This document shows positions 9,469 through 18,321 of a DNA stretch of 64,000 nucleotides, piece after piece (within the stretch, counting starts at the first letter, position 1; each line of letters starts with the position of its first letter). The stretch is from Acidobacteriota bacterium. GTDB lineage: Bacteria > Acidobacteriota > UBA890 > WLXD01. The stretch lies in the NCBI GenBank assembly GCA_965205505.1, contig CBDBHB010000006.1, forward strand, positions 434,111 to 498,110. The letters run 5' to 3'. The position numbers and the translations under genes were made by a program. The notes beneath the pieces are model-generated. The model worked only from the letters and a program-made list of their open reading frames with translations, was not told the DNA's origin and made no database searches.

Positions 9469-10056
9469 TCAGTCGCCGAGTCGGCTGTCGAGCCGCAACC
9501 AATGCGACGGTACGCCCAGGCGGCGCGCCTCCGCTCGCAGGGCACTTTCCAGGGCACGCCAGGCTCCTAGCTCCCGGCGATTCGCTGTCAGGCGGGCGGA
9601 GCCGTATCCGCTGCCTGCTCCGGGGCGGCTGCGTGTACGCTGCTGCCCAGCTTCCAGGCTCGAGATCTGCTCGCGCAGCCAAGCCATCTTCTCCTTCCAG
9701 TAAGCGCGGTCAGCCGGATCGAGATAGAAGCTCTCGGGCTGAGGCGCAGACGAGGCGATCGGGCTTCGTCGCTCGTGAACGCGCGTCGCGGGTCGCCGCG
9801 CCGGATTGCCATCAGCGGGTCGGGCGTTGATCGTGCGGGGCACAGACCCCGGAGAGCGACCGTCGTCGCGCCGGATCTGGCGCACGAGGTCGGCCGACAT
9901 CGCCACCTCGACGCCGTAGGCTCGAAAAACCACCTTGCCGTTCTCGATGCGCGCATCCTCGACCTGCAGGACACGGCCGTTCGCAAGCCAGACCGTGTCG
10001 GCGGCGGCCGGTACGGTCACACTGGCGACGACCAGAACGAGGAGGAAGGTTCGCAT
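9469..10056 (-). CDS. secreted hypothetical protein
   Basis: 195 aa with N-terminal signal peptide MRTFLLVLVVASVTVPAAA. No recognised domain. Confidence 0.45.
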   Translation of the reverse strand: MRTFLLVLVVASVTVPAAADTVWLANGRVLQVEDARIENGKVVFRAYGVEVAMSADLVRQIRRDDGRSPGSVPRTINARPADGNPARRPATRVHERRSPIASSAPQPESFYLDPADRAYWKEKMAWLREQISSLEAGQQRTRSRPGAGSGYGSARLTANRRELGAWRALESALRAEARRLGVPSHWLRLDSRLGD

Positions 10057-10194
10057 GCCGGCAACCTTGCACCGGCGGATGCCGCGCCGTCTAGTGTGCT
10101 GAGTCAGGAATCCGTTGCATATTGCTGGGCCGAGATGGGAGCAAGCTCAAGGCGCGATGAGGAAACGCCCGCCGCCCCCGGGTACACTCGTGGC

Positions 10195-11814
10195 ATGCGC
10201 TTGCACTACGTTCGCCACCTGCCTGCCGTGGGTCTCGGCAACATACGGCCCTGGGCGCTACGGTGTGGCTGGGAGATAACCGAGACGCGACCCTACGCCG
10301 GGGAGAGCTTCCCTGGCCTCGACGGCATCGACCTGCTCATCGTGTTGGGTGGCCCGATGGGAGCCTGCGACGAGCACGAGCACGCCTGGCTACTGACGGA
10401 GCTCGACTTCGTGGAGCGTGCCATCGAAGCCGGCACGAACGTCCTGGGAATTTGTCTCGGCGGCCAGATAGTCGCCCGCGCTCTTGGGGCACGGGTGGTG
10501 CGCCATCGCCATCCCGAGCTCGGATGGCACGTGATCGAGCCGACCGTCGAAGGCAGCATGGACGGGCGCCTAGCGCCCTTCTTTGCCCCCGAGCTGGCCG
10601 TGATGCAGTGGCACTTCGACACATTCGATCTGCCTCGCGGCGCCGTTCACCTGGCCCGGAACGAGGCGTGCGAGAACCAGGCCTTCAGCTGGGGCGCCAA
10701 CGTTCTCGGGCTGCAATTTCACCCTGAGATGACGCTTCAAGTTGTCGCCGATGTCTTGAAGCGCTACAACCCGCTGCCGGACGGAGAGTTCGTGACGAGG
10801 GCCGACGAGATGCTCTACGCGGCACGCTTCGCCACCTTGGCGGCAGCCAACGGCAGTTTTCTCGATGGCATGACCGGGCGGGTACGTGGCGAAGGTGACG
10901 TGGCGTCGGCGCCAGCTCACGCCAGCGGAGCGGCACCTAGCGCGGACGTACATCTCGTCGACGGCACGTACGAGCTGTTCCGGCATTTCTACGCCTTGCC
11001 GCGAAGCCAGGACGGCGCGGGCTTGGAGGTCGGCGCAGTTCGAGGCGTGCTGGCCTCCATGCTCGGATTGCTACGTGACGGCGCGACGCACATCGGCGTG
11101 GCAACGGACCATGTGATCGAGTCGTTTCGCAACGAGATGTGGGATGGCTACAAGCGCGGGGATGGCATCGATCCCGAGCTACTGGGGCAATTCGAACCGC
11201 TCGAGCAGGCATTGGAGGCAATGGGCATCGTGGTGTGGCCGATGCGCAAGTACGAGGCGGACGACGCGCTCGCTTCCGCCGCTGCGTGCCTCACATCCGA
11301 CAGCTCAGTGCGCCGCGTGCTTATCTGTACGCCCGACAAGGACCTGGCGCAGTGTGTGGTCGACGATCGCGTGGTGCAGCTGGATCGTCGGGCGCGGACG
11401 GTGCGGGGCGTAGCCGGTGTGCTGGAGAAATTCGGTGTGCTACCGGGCTCGATCCCCGACTACTTGGCGCTGGTCGGCGATAGTGCCGACGGTTATCCGG
11501 GGGTGCGACGCTGGGGCGCAAAATCCAGCTCGACGCTCCTGCATCAATATGTTTATCTCGAGGCGATCCCGCGTCAGGCCGAGGCCTGGAAGGTCCAGGT
11601 AAGAGGAGCCCACAAACTGGCCGCCACGCTCGCCGAGAGCTGGGACGACGTGCTCTTGTTTCGTGACCTGGCGACGCTGCGCACCGACGCGATCGTTGTA
11701 TCGGCCGAGGCCCTGCGATGGGAGGGTCCGACGGACCGGTTCGCGGCGCTGGCTGACGATCTCAGGTCTCCGCAGCTCGCTGAACAAGCGGCGAAGCTGG
11801 CCGCCATTCGGTGA
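10195..11814 (+). CDS. fusion ORF: class-I glutamine amidotransferase-like domain + 5'-3' exonuclease (Xni/ExoIX-like flap endonuclease) domain
   Basis: N-terminal ~240 aa carry a GATase1 catalytic triad context (GICLGGQ Cys, LQFHPE His-Glu). After a low-complexity linker (GEGDVASAPAHASGAAPS) come 5'-3' exonuclease motifs (VHLVDGTYELFRHFYA, KYEADDALASAA, ICTPDKDLAQCV, DYLALVGDSADGYPGV). No stop codon separates the two parts. Confidence 0.65.
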   Translation: MRLHYVRHLPAVGLGNIRPWALRCGWEITETRPYAGESFPGLDGIDLLIVLGGPMGACDEHEHAWLLTELDFVERAIEAGTNVLGICLGGQIVARALGARVVRHRHPELGWHVIEPTVEGSMDGRLAPFFAPELAVMQWHFDTFDLPRGAVHLARNEACENQAFSWGANVLGLQFHPEMTLQVVADVLKRYNPLPDGEFVTRADEMLYAARFATLAAANGSFLDGMTGRVRGEGDVASAPAHASGAAPSADVHLVDGTYELFRHFYALPRSQDGAGLEVGAVRGVLASMLGLLRDGATHIGVATDHVIESFRNEMWDGYKRGDGIDPELLGQFEPLEQALEAMGIVVWPMRKYEADDALASAAACLTSDSSVRRVLICTPDKDLAQCVVDDRVVQLDRRARTVRGVAGVLEKFGVLPGSIPDYLALVGDSADGYPGVRRWGAKSSSTLLHQYVYLEAIPRQAEAWKVQVRGAHKLAATLAESWDDVLLFRDLATLRTDAIVVSAEALRWEGPTDRFAALADDLRSPQLAEQAAKLAAIR

Positions 11815-11899
11815 TGCGCACTTCGGCGTTGTCGGAGTCGGTGATGTAGCCACGCCCGGGTCCTTCTGTCGCCGCGGCTGAGCCTGCCGGGATGTGAGC

Positions 11900-14467
11900 C
11901 TATTCGGTCGTCGGCCCGTACCCTGCGCCGAATTGTCCTTGCGCCGCCGCACGCGCGCCCTGCACCCATTCCTCGAGCCGAATCCTGCCGATCAAGCGGG
12001 GCTCGCGCGCCTCGATCCACTCGACGTCGCTCTGGTTCCAATCCGCGATCTGGTTGTAGGTAAAGATCCCGGTGGCGTTGAGAAGCTCGGCCGTCTTCGA
12101 GCCGATTCCCTTGATGGCCGTCAGATCGTCTCCCGTAGGGGGCTCGACGCGGAGTAGGGTGCGCATCTGCCGTCCCTCGATCTCGCGCTCGTGGAGCTCG
12201 CGGAGTAGTCGCTCGCGCGTATCGTCGCTGCGAATCATCTGCGCCTCGAGCGTCTCGATCCTGGCGTTGCGACGCTCGATGCGCGTCTCCGCCACTTCTG
12301 CGTCGTCCTTGGCATGCTCGGTCTGGAGCAGGTGCTCCGCCAGCTCGGCCTCGCGGTCGCGGAGCATACCGGCAATACCGTCGCGCTCGAGCTGCCGCTC
12401 GCGCAACCGCCGCTCGTAGCTGACCTCCATTTCGGCCATGTCGGCCTGCATGGATTCCGCCAGCGCTTGGGTTCGAGCCTGGGCGGTCTCGGCGGCTTGC
12501 AGCTCCGAAATCCGCGTTCCCAACTGTGCTTGTGCGTCTAGTGCCTGGGCGCGCTCCTGATCGAGCGTCGAACGCAAGCCCGTCACCTCCTGGTCGAGTC
12601 GCCGCACGGTCTCACCGGACGTTCGGATCTCCTCCAGCTGCGCCTCGAGCGTACGGCGTAGACGGTCCATCTCCAGGTCGCGCTCACGAAGCGACCGCTC
12701 CGTCGCTGCCGTGTGCTCCTCGACCTCTGCCTGGAGTGATTCGATGCGCTCGCGATCGTTTTTTACTTGCTGGTCGCGCCTTGCCAACATCTCGGTTTGC
12801 TGGGCGGTGCGCTGCTCGAGGCGCTCGATACTCGAGTCGCGCTCCGCGAGGATCGCTTCAGCCTCTTCGGTCTGACGCTGATTCTGCTCCGTGAGCTCGG
12901 CAAGGAGGCGATCAAGCTCGACGCGTCTCTCGCCGTTCCGGGCCATGCGCGCCTCGAGTGCCAGGAGCGAATCGTTGAGCTCCTCGATATGGAGGACATG
13001 GGCGCGCCCCTGCTCCTGGGTGTCGAGCAGGCGGGTCCCGACCGCGTCGGCGCGCGCCTGCATTTCCTTCAACTGCTGGTCACGGCGTTCGATCTGCACG
13101 ACGTAGTCAGCCTCGAGGGTCCGCGCCTCGTCACGTGCCGCGCGCAGGGCCTCGGCGCGCTCCTGGAAATCTCCGGTTAGGGCCGCCAAGCTGGCAGCGA
13201 GCTCGTCGTGCTCGGCGGTCAGGTTGTCGATCCGGGTGTTCGCCTGGCGCAACTCCTCGCCATCGCGGTCGATGCGTTCACCCGAGCTTTGGCGCTCATC
13301 GCGAAGCCGTTGGATCTCCTCGGTGCGCTCCTCCAGTCTCTGGCGGAGTTGCTGGACCTCATCGGCTGGCTCGCGCACCTGCTGCCCGTAGCGCCGCTCG
13401 AGCTCGTCCAGCTCACCCTGGAGACGGGAGACGCGCTCGCCGCCGCCGCTGATCTGATCCTCCATTGCTGCCAAGCGCTGGGTGGCTTCGTCGCGCTCGC
13501 TGGTCAGCTGGGCACGCTCTTCCTCGCTCTCCGCGAGCTCCTGGCGCACTTCGGCGAGCCAGATCTCGACTTCGGTGGTTGCCTGCGGAGCGGCTTCGAG
13601 CTCGGTGATCCGCGCGTCGCGCCAGCGGATCTCATCGTCGTGGCGAGTCTCCAGATCGACGATAGTAATGTGCGCCTCCTCTAGCTCGGTGACCGCCGCT
13701 CGAATGTCGCCATCTCTCGACAACAGGCCGATTTCTTGTGAGCCGTTTTCCGCCGCGAGTGTGGCCGTGTTTGCTTGCGCGGCCTCGAGCTCCTGTTGCA
13801 ACCGAGCGGTTTCTTCGTCGCGCGCCGCCAGAGTCTGTAGCGCCTCGCGCAGCTGGCCGCCCTGGTTGTTGAGTTGACCACCCAGCCTCTCGAGGTCGAG
13901 ACGCAGCGCGCCAACATCCACACCATCAGCGTTTGCAGCGCTCGCCGACGATTCGGCCACTTGACGGCGCAGAGCCTCGAGCTCTCGGGTGACCTCTTGC
14001 AGACGACCGGCATGTGCCTCGCAATCGCTCATGGTGATGTCGAGCGCAGTCTGTCGATCGATGAGTTGATGCTCGAGCGCGCTGTTCTCGCTGCGCAGCG
14101 CCTCGATCTCGTCTCGTGTCGCATGCAGTCGGGCTTGGCTCTCGGCCAGCACTTCTTCGCGGCGCTTGAGCTCCGCCGCGGCGGTGCTCGCGGACTCGTC
14201 GGCAGCATCACGTTCGAGCTCTCCACGCTCGAGCTGAGCGCGCAACGCGTCGCGATCCGACTCGGTCTCCAATAGCTTGCCGTTCAGCTCATCACGCTCA
14301 CGTTGCACGCGGCGCAGCAGTGCGGTGGATGTGCTCGAGGCGGTGCGCTTCCCGGTAGCCGAACCGATCAGGTAGCCGATCGCGGCTACTAGCAAGAGGC
14401 TGATGACGACCGTGAGAGCGGGAGGGAGCATCCGGTTACTTCCAGTTGCGGTTGTGAGAATGGCCAC
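11900..14467 (-). CDS. membrane-anchored long coiled-coil protein with C-terminal helix-hairpin-helix-type domain
   Basis: 855 aa. N-terminal TM helix (LPPALTVVISLLLVAAIGYLIG), about 750 aa of heptad-rich E/R/L/A coiled coil, and a C-terminal DDLTAIKGIGSKTAELLNATGIFTYNQIADW HhH-like module. Confidence 0.7.
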   Translation of the reverse strand: MAILTTATGSNRMLPPALTVVISLLLVAAIGYLIGSATGKRTASSTSTALLRRVQRERDELNGKLLETESDRDALRAQLERGELERDAADESASTAAAELKRREEVLAESQARLHATRDEIEALRSENSALEHQLIDRQTALDITMSDCEAHAGRLQEVTRELEALRRQVAESSASAANADGVDVGALRLDLERLGGQLNNQGGQLREALQTLAARDEETARLQQELEAAQANTATLAAENGSQEIGLLSRDGDIRAAVTELEEAHITIVDLETRHDDEIRWRDARITELEAAPQATTEVEIWLAEVRQELAESEEERAQLTSERDEATQRLAAMEDQISGGGERVSRLQGELDELERRYGQQVREPADEVQQLRQRLEERTEEIQRLRDERQSSGERIDRDGEELRQANTRIDNLTAEHDELAASLAALTGDFQERAEALRAARDEARTLEADYVVQIERRDQQLKEMQARADAVGTRLLDTQEQGRAHVLHIEELNDSLLALEARMARNGERRVELDRLLAELTEQNQRQTEEAEAILAERDSSIERLEQRTAQQTEMLARRDQQVKNDRERIESLQAEVEEHTAATERSLRERDLEMDRLRRTLEAQLEEIRTSGETVRRLDQEVTGLRSTLDQERAQALDAQAQLGTRISELQAAETAQARTQALAESMQADMAEMEVSYERRLRERQLERDGIAGMLRDREAELAEHLLQTEHAKDDAEVAETRIERRNARIETLEAQMIRSDDTRERLLRELHEREIEGRQMRTLLRVEPPTGDDLTAIKGIGSKTAELLNATGIFTYNQIADWNQSDVEWIEAREPRLIGRIRLEEWVQGARAAAQGQFGAGYGPTTE

Positions 14468-14856
14468 GCGCCCGAAAGCGAGGTGCGCTCAGCGGTTGAG
14501 TATTACCAACAGATCCGCCACCGTCGATGCGCGGTCGTCAAGCCGGGCGTCGAATCCGGCCATCACGAGACAACCGCGTCGCCTGGTCGCCGGGACGATG
14601 CGCCGACGCACGCTGTTCGGTCCCAACGACACCCGAGCCAATCACGTGCAGGCACTTTCTGATTTTCGCGGCGGCTCGCAGCCGCGCTGGGTGGCGTCGC
14701 GAGGCGACACTAGTGGCCTACGCAAGCCTGTTCATCGCTGAGCGCACCGCGCCGGTGGACGTTGCCCTCGGTTCGCGCTATTCATGAGCTGCAGCCCAGT
14801 GTGGACAGCCAAGGCCTCGGAGGCGACTGCGGCGACCATCGGCGGGGGCGCCGGCG

Positions 14857-15918
14857 TCAGTAGTGGGCACCGGCGCCGCCCGGTCTGGCTCCGAGTAGCG
14901 GCATGACGGCCAGCCCCAGCAGCAACGGCAAGTAGAAGCTGAAGAATCGCCAGCCAGCGGTGACGATTCCGAGGATTCCCTCCGCCACGAAGCCGTCAAT
15001 CACAGCACCAAAAGAAGCCTCGGCACCGAGTGCCGCGCCCGGCGTGGGTACGAACACCATCATCATGAACACTACCCACTGCAACAAAAAGAACAACACC
15101 GGGTCGACCCGGGTTCCGAGTCCGTAGAGCACTGCCGTGGCCACCGAGCAGCGGGTCACCCAGAGGCCGGTGGTCAGTACGACCGCGACCAGGAACCGGG
15201 TCTTGCCGAACTTGCCAACTAGCTCGTAGGCCGACACGAATTCGTCACGCACGCGCGCCAGGGCACCGCGAAAGCCGACCGTGTCGGCCGCTGGATTCCG
15301 GACACGAAGCCAACGCACGAAAAGGAGCAGTCCGACGACCGCGATAACCCCAACGATCCACGGCGTGGCCGAGACTGCTTTGTCAGCCACCCTACCTAGT
15401 ACTACTTGAACCTCGGGCAGGGCCCAGCGGGAGGTCGCGAAGGCGATCGCGGGAGCCACGCCGACGAAGAACACGATGTCGACGAGGTTGTCCAACATCA
15501 ACATCGAGGCTGCGGTGCCGGTTCGTACCCCGCTATCGACGAGTAAGCCGACCTTGACGGGGGCGCCGCCGATCGCCTTGGGGCTGATCGACGATCCCAG
15601 CTCGGTACCAACGCCCACCCGCAGCGCGTTGCGAGCGGTAATGGGCGAGCCAAAGAACCTCGCCCACATCCACGCTCGCGCGGCCGTAAAGAACCAAGGC
15701 GCGACTCCCAGGGCGATAGCAGCACCCAGCCATATCGGTGCTACGGAGCGCAGAGTTCCTGCTGCTCCGACGCGTATCGATTGCCAGGCCAGCGCGAGGT
15801 TGACGGCGGCACCGACGAGGATGATACCTATCCCCCACCTAGCAATCGTTGCGAACAGCTTGGACCGCGAAGGGCTCGACAATGCGCTCTCTGAAGGCGG
15901 CATGATGGCGCCGAGCAT
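14857..15918 (-). CDS. flippase-like / lysylphosphatidylglycerol-synthase-TM-domain family membrane protein
   Basis: 353-aa polytopic membrane protein. Resembles the UPF0104/LPG_synthase_TM family. Confidence 0.55.
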   Translation of the reverse strand: MLGAIMPPSESALSSPSRSKLFATIARWGIGIILVGAAVNLALAWQSIRVGAAGTLRSVAPIWLGAAIALGVAPWFFTAARAWMWARFFGSPITARNALRVGVGTELGSSISPKAIGGAPVKVGLLVDSGVRTGTAASMLMLDNLVDIVFFVGVAPAIAFATSRWALPEVQVVLGRVADKAVSATPWIVGVIAVVGLLLFVRWLRVRNPAADTVGFRGALARVRDEFVSAYELVGKFGKTRFLVAVVLTTGLWVTRCSVATAVLYGLGTRVDPVLFFLLQWVVFMMMVFVPTPGAALGAEASFGAVIDGFVAEGILGIVTAGWRFFSFYLPLLLGLAVMPLLGARPGGAGAHY

Positions 15919-16673: not shown

Positions 16674-18321
16674 GTGGGTTCCACGTACAAGGCAGACGCG
16701 GTCATCGTGGGCGGTGGGCTCGCTGGATTGACCGCCGCCCTCGAGCTCCTCGAGACCGGACGCAGCGTTGTACTGCTCGAACGCGGGTCTGAGAAGAAGC
16801 TCGGCGGGCTGGCGAGAATCTCGTTCGGCGGTGTTTTTATCGTCGGATCGCCGGAGCAGCGGCGCGCCGGCATCCGCGACAGCGTCGACCTGGCGCTGCG
16901 CGATTGGTTGAGCTTCGGCGAGCATGGAGCCGAGGACGTGTGGCCGCGCCGCTGGGCCGAAGCATACGTTTCGGGGTGTCGGGAGCAGGTATACGACTGG
17001 CTGCGCGGTCACGGCGTGAAGTTCTTCCCGGTGGTGCACTGGGTCGAGCGAGGACTTCATGGCGGCGGCAACACGCTGCCGCGGTTTCACATCGTCTGGG
17101 GTACCGGCGAGAGATTGGTGCTCGCTTTACTCGAGCGACTCGAGAGTCATCCTCACCGCGACCGTTTGTTGCTACTGCATGGTCATCGCGTCACCGATCT
17201 GGAGAGCGTCAACGGTGCGTTCGTGGGCTGCTCCGGCGTTGTCGAGTCGGAAGATGCCGACGGCGACCGACTCGCCGGCAGGCAGGCGGCCGGTGAGTTT
17301 GCCGCCGCAGGCGATTGCCTGGTGATCGCCGCCGGTGGGATCTGCGGCAACCTGGCCCTGGTTCGACAACACTGGCATGCTGATTGGGGGACACCTCCGG
17401 AGACGCTGTTGAATGGCTCGCATCCCGCCGCGGACGGGCACCTTCACGGCGTTGCCGCGCGACTCGGTGCCAACATCACGCACCTCGACAAGATGTGGAA
17501 CTACGCTGCCGGCGTGCATCACTGGCGGCCGCACCACGAGCACCACGGAATGTCCCTCGTGCCACCCATGTCGGCTTTGTGGCTCAACTGGCGTGGTGAG
17601 CGGTTGGGCCCCCCGGCCATGATGGGGGGCTACGACACGCGCTATCTCGTGCAGATGGTTTGCGGCCAGGAACGCCAGTACTCGTGGCAGGTATTCAACT
17701 GGCGCATCGCCATGAAGGAGCTTGCGGTTTCCGGCGCGGAGTTCAATCATGCGGGTCCGCGAGCGCAAGCTGTTGCAGTTCCTGCTCACCACTCTCCGAG
17801 GCGACGCGGTACTTGTGCGCGAGCTCGTCGAGCATTGTGAAGACTTCGTGACTGCCGACTCATTGCCGGAGCTGGCCGAGAAGATGAACAGCCTGACCGG
17901 TAGCGATGACGTTGATTCGCAGACGCTTGCGAATGTGGTCGGACGCTACGATGAGGCGATCAGGCGTGGTGGCAAGCTGAGCAACGACGATCAGATCCTG
18001 CGGCTGCATCACGTTCGTCGCTACCGGGGCGACCGGGCGCGAACCTGCAGGCCGCGTCCGATCGACGATCCGCGAGCTCGTCCGCTCATCGCCGTCCGCG
18101 AGTTTGTCATCACACGCAAGAGCCTCGGCGGCCTGCAAACCGACCTGCAGTCCCGTGTCCTCGACCACGCCGGGGAGCCGTTGCCGGGTCTGTACGCGGT
18201 CGGGGAGGCGGCGGGATTCGGAGGTGGCGGTATTCACGGCTTGCGTTCGCTGGAGGGCACCTGCTTGGGTGGCTGTGTCTTCACCGGTCGCGCTGCGGCG
18301 CGAGCCATCGTCAAGGGCTAG
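16674..18321 (+). CDS. FAD-binding dehydrogenase (FAD_binding_2 / KstD-fumarate reductase-like), disrupted by an apparent +1 frameshift near 17745
   Basis: N-terminal ADAVIVGGGLAGLTAALEL dinucleotide-binding motif. The C-terminal part (…GLYAVGEAAGFGGGGIHG…) continues in another frame as ORF 17722..18321. The junction reads ttc aat c atg cgg. Confidence 0.65.

Follow-up and report, generated by a model that had tools for sequence, protein, structure and literature searches.

The window analysed here, a 64-kb stretch of DNA from an Acidobacteriota bacterium, carries on its plus strand an open reading frame (ORF) of 539 codons plus a TGA stop (10195..11814), in which a class-I glutamine amidotransferase-like domain (hereafter, GATase) is joined to a 5'-3' exonuclease domain of the flap endonuclease (FEN) family. 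The frame is free of stop codons from 10195 to 11811, and an ORF of the same length, P0121, is found on 7 other contigs. In related lineages, the two domains are encoded by separate genes, and alignment with the closest of these lineages shows that one in-frame deletion of 132 bp separates the split arrangement from the fused one.

Domain Content of the Fused Reading Frame

Called mechanically, the ORF extends from 9775 to 11814 (+) with GTG 9775 as its first codon, and its upstream part overlaps a gene on the minus strand. The supported start is ATG 10195, not GTG 9775, because the translation from this ATG opens with MRLHYV, the conserved N-terminus of the closest stand-alone GATases, and because the conserved pattern TACACT-N6-ATG lies at 10183-10197. 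The original prediction for this locus, made by a model from the letters of the window, had likewise placed the ORF at 10195-11814, and the N-termini of the homologues agree with it. It had also described one uninterrupted frame that fuses a complete GATase1-like fold to a 5'-3' exonuclease domain. Pfam, NCBIfam and the translation agree, and both domains are complete: the Pfam matches on the fused ORF are GATase (PF00117, aa 43-182), 5_3_exonuc_N (PF02739, aa 252-414) and 5_3_exonuc (PF01367, aa 416-512), while the NCBIfam GATase models cover aa 1-227 and the DNA polymerase I (Pol I) and 5'-3' exonuclease models aa 251-513. The motifs quoted in support are all present (GICLGGQ at 85-91, QFHPE at 174-178, VHLVDG at 252-257, YEADD at 353-357 and GDSADG at 428-433). 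No paralogue of either half was found elsewhere in the 64-kb window.

The GATase core (aa 1-227; 10195..10875, +) is delimited by PF00117, NCBIfam and the alignment of homologues. The PF00117 match has an E-value of 4e-15 (56.3 bits for a cutoff of 22.8), that of NF005458 an E-value of 7e-49, and NF006098 covers aa 1-227. The Cys-His-Glu triad is kept, with the nucleophile Cys87 in GICLGGQ and His176/Glu178 in FHPE; C87, H176, P177 and E178 are invariant across an alignment of 10 homologues. A separate search with this half, together with the invariant triad, bears out the GATase1-like nature first proposed for the N-terminal domain. Indeed, the N-terminal 242 aa share 74-88% identity with stand-alone GATases of 240-256 aa, and the closest solved structures for this half are stand-alone GATases as well (9xfs and TM1158/1o1y). 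The PRK07053-type equivalog is not reached (166.3 bits for an NCBIfam cutoff of 250), and neither Pfam nor NCBIfam finds an ammonia-accepting synthase domain within the ORF, the neighbours being AP_endonuc_2-type, hypothetical and coiled-coil genes. The GATase half is of the orphan stand-alone subtype, possibly with a partner encoded elsewhere. The window protein is like the stand-alone “GMP synthase-like” class-I GATases (PRK07053/PRK08250 type; TM1158, 1o1y; 9xfs) in its triad and its best PDB matches, but it lacks the GATase stop, runs on into a nuclease and stays below the equivalog cutoffs.

The second half is a 5'-3' exonuclease/flap endonuclease domain (aa 252-539; 10948..11811, +) made of a resolvase-like nuclease core and a helix-3-turn-helix (H3TH) region, as judged from PF02739, PF01367 and alignment with Pol I. 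PF02739 matches over profile positions 2-164 of 164 (E-value 6e-31; 107.8 bits for a cutoff of 34.3), and PF01367, the H3TH/SAM-fold DNA-binding domain, matches with an E-value of 1e-17 (64.6 bits for a cutoff of 40). Residues D256, D305, E354, D356, D357, D381, D383, D429 and D432 are identical to the aligned residues of the Taq and M. smegmatis Pol I; from family knowledge, we take these conserved carboxylates to be metal ligands. By its two Pfam domains and its carboxylates, this half is a FEN-family member, with a predicted structure-specific 5' nuclease activity. Its C-terminal 297 aa are 83-86% identical to stand-alone proteins of 297-299 aa (one of 313 aa) from Acidobacteriota-type metagenome-assembled genomes (MAGs) and about 60% identical to hundreds of further stand-alone proteins; the named homologues of both halves point to Acidobacteriota MAGs.

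The name Xni, which the original prediction had offered for this domain, is too specific: NF007017, the Xni (ExoIX) equivalog, gives 75.2 bits for a cutoff of 261, and the E. coli Xni/ExoIX structure 3zd8 matches at an E-value of 2e-12, far more weakly than the 5' nuclease domains of Pol I, which are the best solved structures (6vde from M. smegmatis, 5e-30; 1taq from Taq, 1e-27). The resemblance to Xni is one of fold family, Xni being a stand-alone FEN-type protein. The domain lies closer to the 5' nuclease domain of Pol I, which it matches over its whole length, including the VDG, D, YEADD, DKD and GDxxD motifs, although the Pol I equivalog is not reached either (171 bits for a cutoff of 720). 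The Pol I nuclease is N-terminal with a polymerase as its partner, whereas the window nuclease is C-terminal with a partner unrelated to DNA metabolism. With the stand-alone proteins annotated “5'-3' exonuclease H3TH domain-containing protein”, it shares both Pfam domains and all the aligned carboxylates, and differs in having neither its own start codon nor its own upstream element, and in carrying a 242-aa GATase at its N-terminus. These stand-alone exonucleases/FENs are paralogues of the Pol I N-terminal domain.

Two observations concern the exonuclease family at large. The stand-alone protein, of some 300 aa, keeps an identity of about 60% between MAGs that carry the labels Acidobacteriota, Gemmatimonadota, Chloroflexota, Actinomycetota, Myxococcota, Methylomirabilia and “Bathyarchaeota”, a cross-phylum conservation that is unusually high, with horizontal spread or mis-binning of contigs as alternatives. 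Three members, P0179 (754 aa), P0189 (502 aa) and P0132 (410 aa), have N-terminal extensions: in one, a Mu-type phage portal domain (PF06074) precedes the nuclease, and the two others carry 100-200 aa without a Pfam match. These putative extensions may be real fusions or gene-calling artefacts.

Split Relatives and the 132-bp Deletion

In five related lineages, the GATase and exonuclease genes are adjacent on the same strand and separate, with a spacer of 90 bp in L001-3, 285 bp in L006, 113 bp in L092 (GATase of 240 aa and exonuclease of 298 aa), 82 bp in L093-95 and 120 bp in L096/97. In L004, the exonuclease gene lies beside a GCV_T aminomethyltransferase gene, and the GATase (P0280) is encoded elsewhere on the same 672-kb contig. 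The fused state is confined to the strains of one uncultured species, and the split state is found in 5/5 of the related lineages in which the genes adjoin; the two activities are, thus, normally carried by separate proteins, just as had been supposed.

The closest split relative is L096, with 90.5% nucleotide identity over both genes. A global alignment of the fused ORF with L096 1516-3232 opens a single gap in the window, of 132 bp, between 10919 and 10920 (+), corresponding to L096 2241-2372; the breakpoint is defined to ±1 base, a C being common to both sides, and this single C is the only microhomology. The missing 132 bp consist of ACG TAG (the last GATase codon and the stop), the 120-bp spacer and ATG AGC (codons 1 and 2 of the exonuclease), and the conserved TACACT promoter-like box of the exonuclease is among them. 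As 132 is a multiple of three and both genes are in the same phase, the outcome is an in-frame fusion. The junction reads GCT CAC / GCC AGC GGA, translated as A-H / A-S-G-A-A-P-S-A-D-V-H-L-V-D-G (junction 30-mer, GGCGCCAGCTCACGCCAGCGGAGCGGCACC), so that the GATase tail is joined directly to exonuclease residue 3.

What lies on either side of this breakpoint is native protein. Searching with the GATase half alone points to an ancestral, stand-alone GATase of 243-256 aa that ends in F-L-[DN]-G-I-x-x-x-x-x-x-x-D/N-V-x-S-x-S-A-x-x and a stop. The window protein has such a C-terminal tail at aa 228-242, GRVRGEGDVASAPAH (10876..10919, +), identified by alignment to P0276, P0277 and P0279-P0282, with its final codon and stop gone; it aligns with the end of the closest stand-alone GATase, P0276 (...ERVRGRADVASESAHT, then the stop). 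The tail varies in sequence and is absent from P0278/L001, which has an early TAG. On the other side, aa 243-251, ASGAAPSAD (10920..10947, +), are the native N-terminal tail of the exonuclease without its Met-Ser, as aligned to MSASGAAPRTD in L096 and MSGAAAPSKSD in P0005. Of the “short Ala/Gly/Ser linker” described in the original prediction, the Ala/Gly/Ser-rich composition stands; a linker as such does not, the stretch being GRVRGEGDVASAPAH and ASGAAPSAD joined end to end.

Another route to the fusion, suggested by the alignment with L001, would be the loss of the stop by a TAG to GGG change accompanied by two deletions. This reading was rejected because the ancestral tail runs 15-16 residues further and because L096 offers a single-deletion account; the TAG of L001 is a lineage-specific early stop. 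Separately, L096 has, at its position 2475, a 35-bp gap relative to the window inside the exonuclease gene, which shifts the frame and falls exactly at the end of the sister contig L097; it is probably a join artefact of short-read assembly rather than a sign of a pseudogene.

Recurrence of the Fusion across Strains

P0121 (539 aa) is identical to the window protein at 538/539 positions and belongs to the same 90%-identity cluster. The exact window protein is on no contig on record, and the contigs are those of P0121. Four of them were retrieved, each from a different ENA assembly: L008 (ERZ26694896), L009 (ERZ25072754), L010 (ERZ28763718) and L011 (ERZ25766156). The 11.6-kb neighbourhoods of these four and of the window differ at about 55 single-nucleotide polymorphism (SNP) positions, shared in varied patterns, and by indels of 8 bp and 150 bp; they are, therefore, distinct strains and not copies of one assembly. 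Within the fused ORF, only 4 sites vary (10323, 10845 and 10965, all third codon positions, and 11509, Arg/Gly), and the segment 10876-10945, which holds the junction, is invariant in all 5 assemblies. The ORF is intact in 5/5, though single-base indels in L008/L009 break neighbouring genes. Both states occur in one metagenome, ERZ28763718, where L010 is fused and the related genome L092 is split. The fusion can be placed before the diversification of the strains sampled so far.

The original prediction had pointed to an out-of-frame ATGA near the junction, which would become a stop/start overlap if a 1-nt indel had been introduced just upstream. The ATGA is present, at 10871-10874, but the residues that the GATase frame encodes across it, and the next 15 as far as ...DVASAPAH, align one by one with those of the orthologues. 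As the frame stays collinear past the ATGA, there is no frameshift and the ATGA is irrelevant; what distinguishes fused from split genes is the 132-bp deletion. The related suggestion that two genes were merged by an assembly error does not hold up against the same junction in 4 other assemblies of distinguishable strains.

Expression Signals and a Possible Internal Start

Six bases before the start of the fused gene lies a -10-like box, in the arrangement TACACT-N6-ATG (10183..10197, +), a candidate promoter for a leaderless transcript recognised by pattern match and conservation. The pattern TACACTN{5,8}ATG has a single match in the window for 0.39 expected by chance, which is weak alone; TACACT also precedes the GATase start in 4/5 split relatives, and L096 has TAAACT there. 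As for the exonuclease, an 18-nt element, GCCGTCTACACTGGGTCG, stands directly before its ATG and is invariant in 6/6 split relatives, L004 included (L096 2340-2370; L001 4975-5003; L004 4975-5003); it is absent from the window. The sequence upstream of this ATG reads GCCGTCTACACTG(G/C)GTC in all six, with TACACT 6-7 nt before the ATG. The element is kept in L004 despite a different upstream gene (GCV_T), and the remainder of the spacer is not conserved, being otherwise unalignable among the split relatives. We interpret the TACACT boxes, from their geometry, as -10 boxes of leaderless transcripts; the GCCGTCTACACTGGGTCG element could be such a box, serving a leaderless mRNA, or else a site where a regulator binds.

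The ancestor would, on this interpretation, have carried a stand-alone GATase-like gene and a FEN-type gene head to tail, each with its own start and with TACACT 6-7 nt before it, probably as two separate and possibly leaderless transcription units. In the lineage of the window, the one deletion would have taken away the last GATase codon, the TAG, the spacer with its TACACT, and the ATG and second codon of the exonuclease. With the exonuclease box deleted, nuclease expression would now depend on the GATase unit, slaved to the GATase promoter and start, and the TACACT at 10183 would be the sole such box now serving both domains. Since no stop occurs until 11812, a ribosome that starts at ATG 10195 would have to make a 539-aa polypeptide, in which the native tails, some 24 residues in all, rich in Gly/Ala/Ser/Pro, little conserved and presumably flexible, would lie between the GATase domain and the nuclease domain.

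A scan for sigma-70 consensus sites over 9900-12000 gave no promoter-like sites and is uninformative for a GC-rich host. Nor does the junction show signs of recoding or of RNA structure: there is no Rfam match, and the RNA fold has a z of -0.04.

One has to consider, nonetheless, that the ORF could be real and the working nuclease be made from an internal start, GTG 10900 or ATG 10870, possibly with an internal promoter, the full-length protein being a minor or unstable by-product. An in-frame GTG (Val236; 10900..10902, +), read from the sequence as a possible internal start, follows GAAGGTGA, a sequence that can pair with the 3' end of 16S RNA, and translation from this GTG would give a free exonuclease of 304 aa, near the 297-299 aa of the stand-alone orthologues. 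However, the GTG and the bases upstream of it are ancestral codons of the GATase tail: GACGTGGCG already lies within that tail in the split relative L096, so this context did not evolve as an internal start. There is little space between the AGG core and the GTG, the sigma-70 scan detected no promoter in 9900-12000, and the starts used in the relatives seem to be of the TACACT/leaderless kind, not of the Shine-Dalgarno kind. Moreover, in the absence of a stop codon, ribosomes coming from 10195 would read through anyway. We regard an internal start as the source of the working nuclease as unlikely, if still the likeliest of the alternatives.

Selection on Both Halves and Fate of the Fused Gene

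That the deletion took place and that the ancestral state was split is seen directly in the alignments. From there, the reading that we favour, with a probability of about three in four, is that of a young and real fusion born of this one 132-bp in-frame deletion, whose two domains are tethered and keep their ancestral, unrelated activities.

The substitution patterns are in line with it. Both halves are under purifying selection: the Nei-Gojobori ratios of nonsynonymous to synonymous substitutions (dN/dS) against five relatives lie at 0.14-0.21 in the GATase and at 0.09-0.16 in the exonuclease, and against L096 alone at 0.21 and 0.14 (the latter over the C-terminal 247 codons), with dS of about 0.24-0.30; all of these are averages over the whole branches to the split relatives and not specific to the post-fusion branch. 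Within the species, the ORF variants comprise 3 at third codon positions and 1 replacement, a sample of four only. Low dN/dS and intact catalytic residues are consistent with continued function of both domains, and the fusion appears to be tolerated, neutral or nearly so.

The breadth of the dN/dS averages and the small number of variants weigh against this reading, and further points have to be set beside them. The accumulation of the 539-aa protein and the activity of its domains are predictions. An AlphaFold2 model of the fused protein, built on an 8-sequence alignment, is uninformative (mean predicted local distance difference test score, pLDDT, of 41; predicted template modelling score, pTM, of 0.33). 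That the two genes have stayed side by side in five lineages of this clade leaves some room for a functional link. Finally, position 11509 is C in the window, giving Arg439, and G, giving Gly, in 4/4 other strains and all stand-alone homologues; codon 439 lies in GV(R/K/V)GWGAKS, the motif of the GhG hairpin in the DNA-binding H3TH region. The private G439R may be damaging, with a weakened nuclease in this one strain, or may be a base error of the assembly.

The last point would also fit a gene on its way to being lost, the deletion having been a mildly deleterious lesion that crippled the expression or folding of one or both proteins. The exonuclease has indeed been left without its own promoter-like box and ATG, and the window copy has a replacement in a conserved hairpin. 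On the other hand, no stop or frameshift has accumulated in the 1,617 nt of the ORF in 5/5 assemblies, two of which have broken neighbouring genes; all the catalytic residues are kept, dN/dS against the closest relative is 0.14-0.21, and G439R is private to a single assembly. Gene loss in progress is, thus, improbable in our view.

Distribution of the Architecture and the Question of Functional Coupling

Among the matches listed, the two-domain architecture is seen only in P0001 and P0121, which form one 90% cluster with 99.8% mutual identity. In the exonuclease-family search, 119/119 other listed homologues contain the two exonuclease domains and no further one; a search of 1.84 billion representatives gave, in its best 150 matches, no protein covering both halves; and, on the GATase side, an exonuclease domain is absent from all of the best 120. 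The word-index search on the GATase side did not return P0001, and the 50%-clustered library puts the cluster of the query under a single-domain representative; other GATase-FEN fusions are, in other words, not found rather than proven absent. A literature search combining glutamine amidotransferase, flap endonuclease and gene fusion found no papers.

The neighbourhoods of distant exonuclease genes were compared at 160 loci, taken among the matches listed at 51-65% identity (80 from genomes, with up to 4 kb fetched, and 80 from metagenomes, with up to 1.5 kb), which inform on neighbourhood and not on close relatives. A homologous GATase lies upstream within the fetched DNA in 0/160. The sole GATase match at a distant locus, in L038, is a 32%-identical fragment located downstream on the opposite strand. 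As none of these distant exonuclease genes has this GATase upstream within the DNA fetched, functional coupling is unsupported.

An adaptive bifunctional enzyme would follow the “Rosetta stone” scheme, in which the tethered GATase-like domain modulates, localises or cooperates with the flap nuclease; it might, for example, link nitrogen/glutamine status, or a gamma-glutamyl/amide-hydrolysing step, to DNA repair. The two genes are same-strand neighbours in five related lineages, all the strains sampled have the fusion, and its two halves both seem to be under constraint, all of which would suit such an enzyme. Yet the exonuclease has its own invariant upstream element, retained beside a different neighbour in L004; the GATase is missing from the fetched DNA upstream of the exonuclease at all 160 distant loci; no second two-domain protein appears among the best matches of three large protein searches; and the junction consists of unmodified native tails. 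To our knowledge, no chemistry links a glutamine-hydrolysing, ammonia-generating triad to a two-metal-dependent nuclease. We, thus, consider adaptive coupling very improbable, and the recruitment of the GATase-like domain as a regulatory, targeting or co-catalytic module of a flap endonuclease, of which the neighbourhood within the clade would be a first hint, is a highly speculative proposal.

The weakest alternative, separate genes merged by an indel or mis-join in this contig, can draw on the gene-splitting single-base indels that L008/L009 of this population do carry (9789, 12896 and 14644) and on the ATGA, but is practically dismissed by the identical junction in the window and four other retrieved assemblies of distinct strains, by the collinear GATase frame, by a clean 132-bp deletion of stop and start that no 1-nt error can mimic, and by ERZ28763718 itself, in which the genes of a sister species are resolved as split.

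It is most economical, then, to see in the locus two unrelated enzymes whose tethering is neutral or nearly so, and we infer that the two domains act independently within the fusion. The fusion is real, reproducible and lineage-specific; it brings two known families together in a new domain combination, with no sign of new biochemistry.

Comparison with Known Fusions and Significance

Covalent attachment of a class-I GATase domain to a second catalytic domain is also the arrangement of GuaA, CTP synthase and the CarA/CarB-type enzymes. Those, however, are ancient architectures in which the GATase domain is coupled to an ammonia-accepting synthase, whereas in the window the partner is a metal-dependent nuclease and the fusion occurs in one species-level lineage with no sign of coupling. 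Seen from the nuclease side, Pol I shows that a 5' nuclease domain works when covalently fused to another enzyme. In its origin, the window fusion resembles the “Rosetta-stone” fusions that arise by intergenic deletion, where adjacent co-oriented genes are joined by the loss of stop, spacer and start; Rosetta-stone logic predicts a functional link, and here the gene neighbourhoods outside the immediate clade argue against one.

The locus offers a clean and datable case of the birth of a multidomain protein, in which independently expressed genes would have been merged by one in-frame deletion, and both the “before” and the “after” states are kept in sister lineages, once within one metagenome. 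If the nuclease is still active in the fusion, a FEN-type nuclease may tolerate a 242-aa N-terminal passenger together with the loss of its own expression signals. For annotation pipelines, two cautions apply: “correcting” the ORF into two genes would be wrong, and so would taking the fusion as evidence for a functional GATase-nuclease pathway. Should coupling nevertheless prove true, it would provide the first functional context for the orphan “GMP-synthase-like” GATases, and an adaptive fusion would establish a new link between this subfamily and DNA repair or replication.

Neighbouring Genes

The common neighbourhood of the fused and split loci comprises an AP_endonuc_2-type gene and a gene for a 172-195-aa hypothetical protein on the minus strand, the GATase and exonuclease genes on the plus strand, then a coiled-coil gene and an LPG_synthase_TM gene. 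Compared with the window, L008 and L009 have single-base insertions at 9789, 12896 and 14644, by which the 195-aa hypothetical protein is shortened to 115 aa and the coiled-coil gene is split; these insertions either reflect a real haplotype of the strains or come from systematic errors of long reads at low coverage (the contig name of L008 gives 3.34x). L011 lacks 150 bp (window 14711-14860) and L010 lacks 8 bp (14578-14585), both of which are present in the window and in the other strains. This indel region, 14578-14860, separates the coiled-coil gene from the LPG_synthase_TM gene, at whose 3' edge it is found.

The coiled-coil gene of the window (11900-14467, -) encodes an 855-aa protein rich in Glu, Arg, Leu and Ala, whose orthologues have faint Pfam matches to CCDC39/Golgin and whose C-terminus resembles a 221-aa product encoded at the same position in L001 (weak HHH_5 match). 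The orthologue has 841-843 aa in L010, L011, L092 and L093, and is called as 338 + 524 aa in L008/L009, following the 1-nt insertion at window position 12896. Further along, the gene for a FAD-binding oxidoreductase (window 16674-17840) is called at 77, 409, 532 or 548 aa in various strains and relatives; these length differences suggest indels or frameshifts there, which may be among the “other apparent indels” mentioned in the original prediction.

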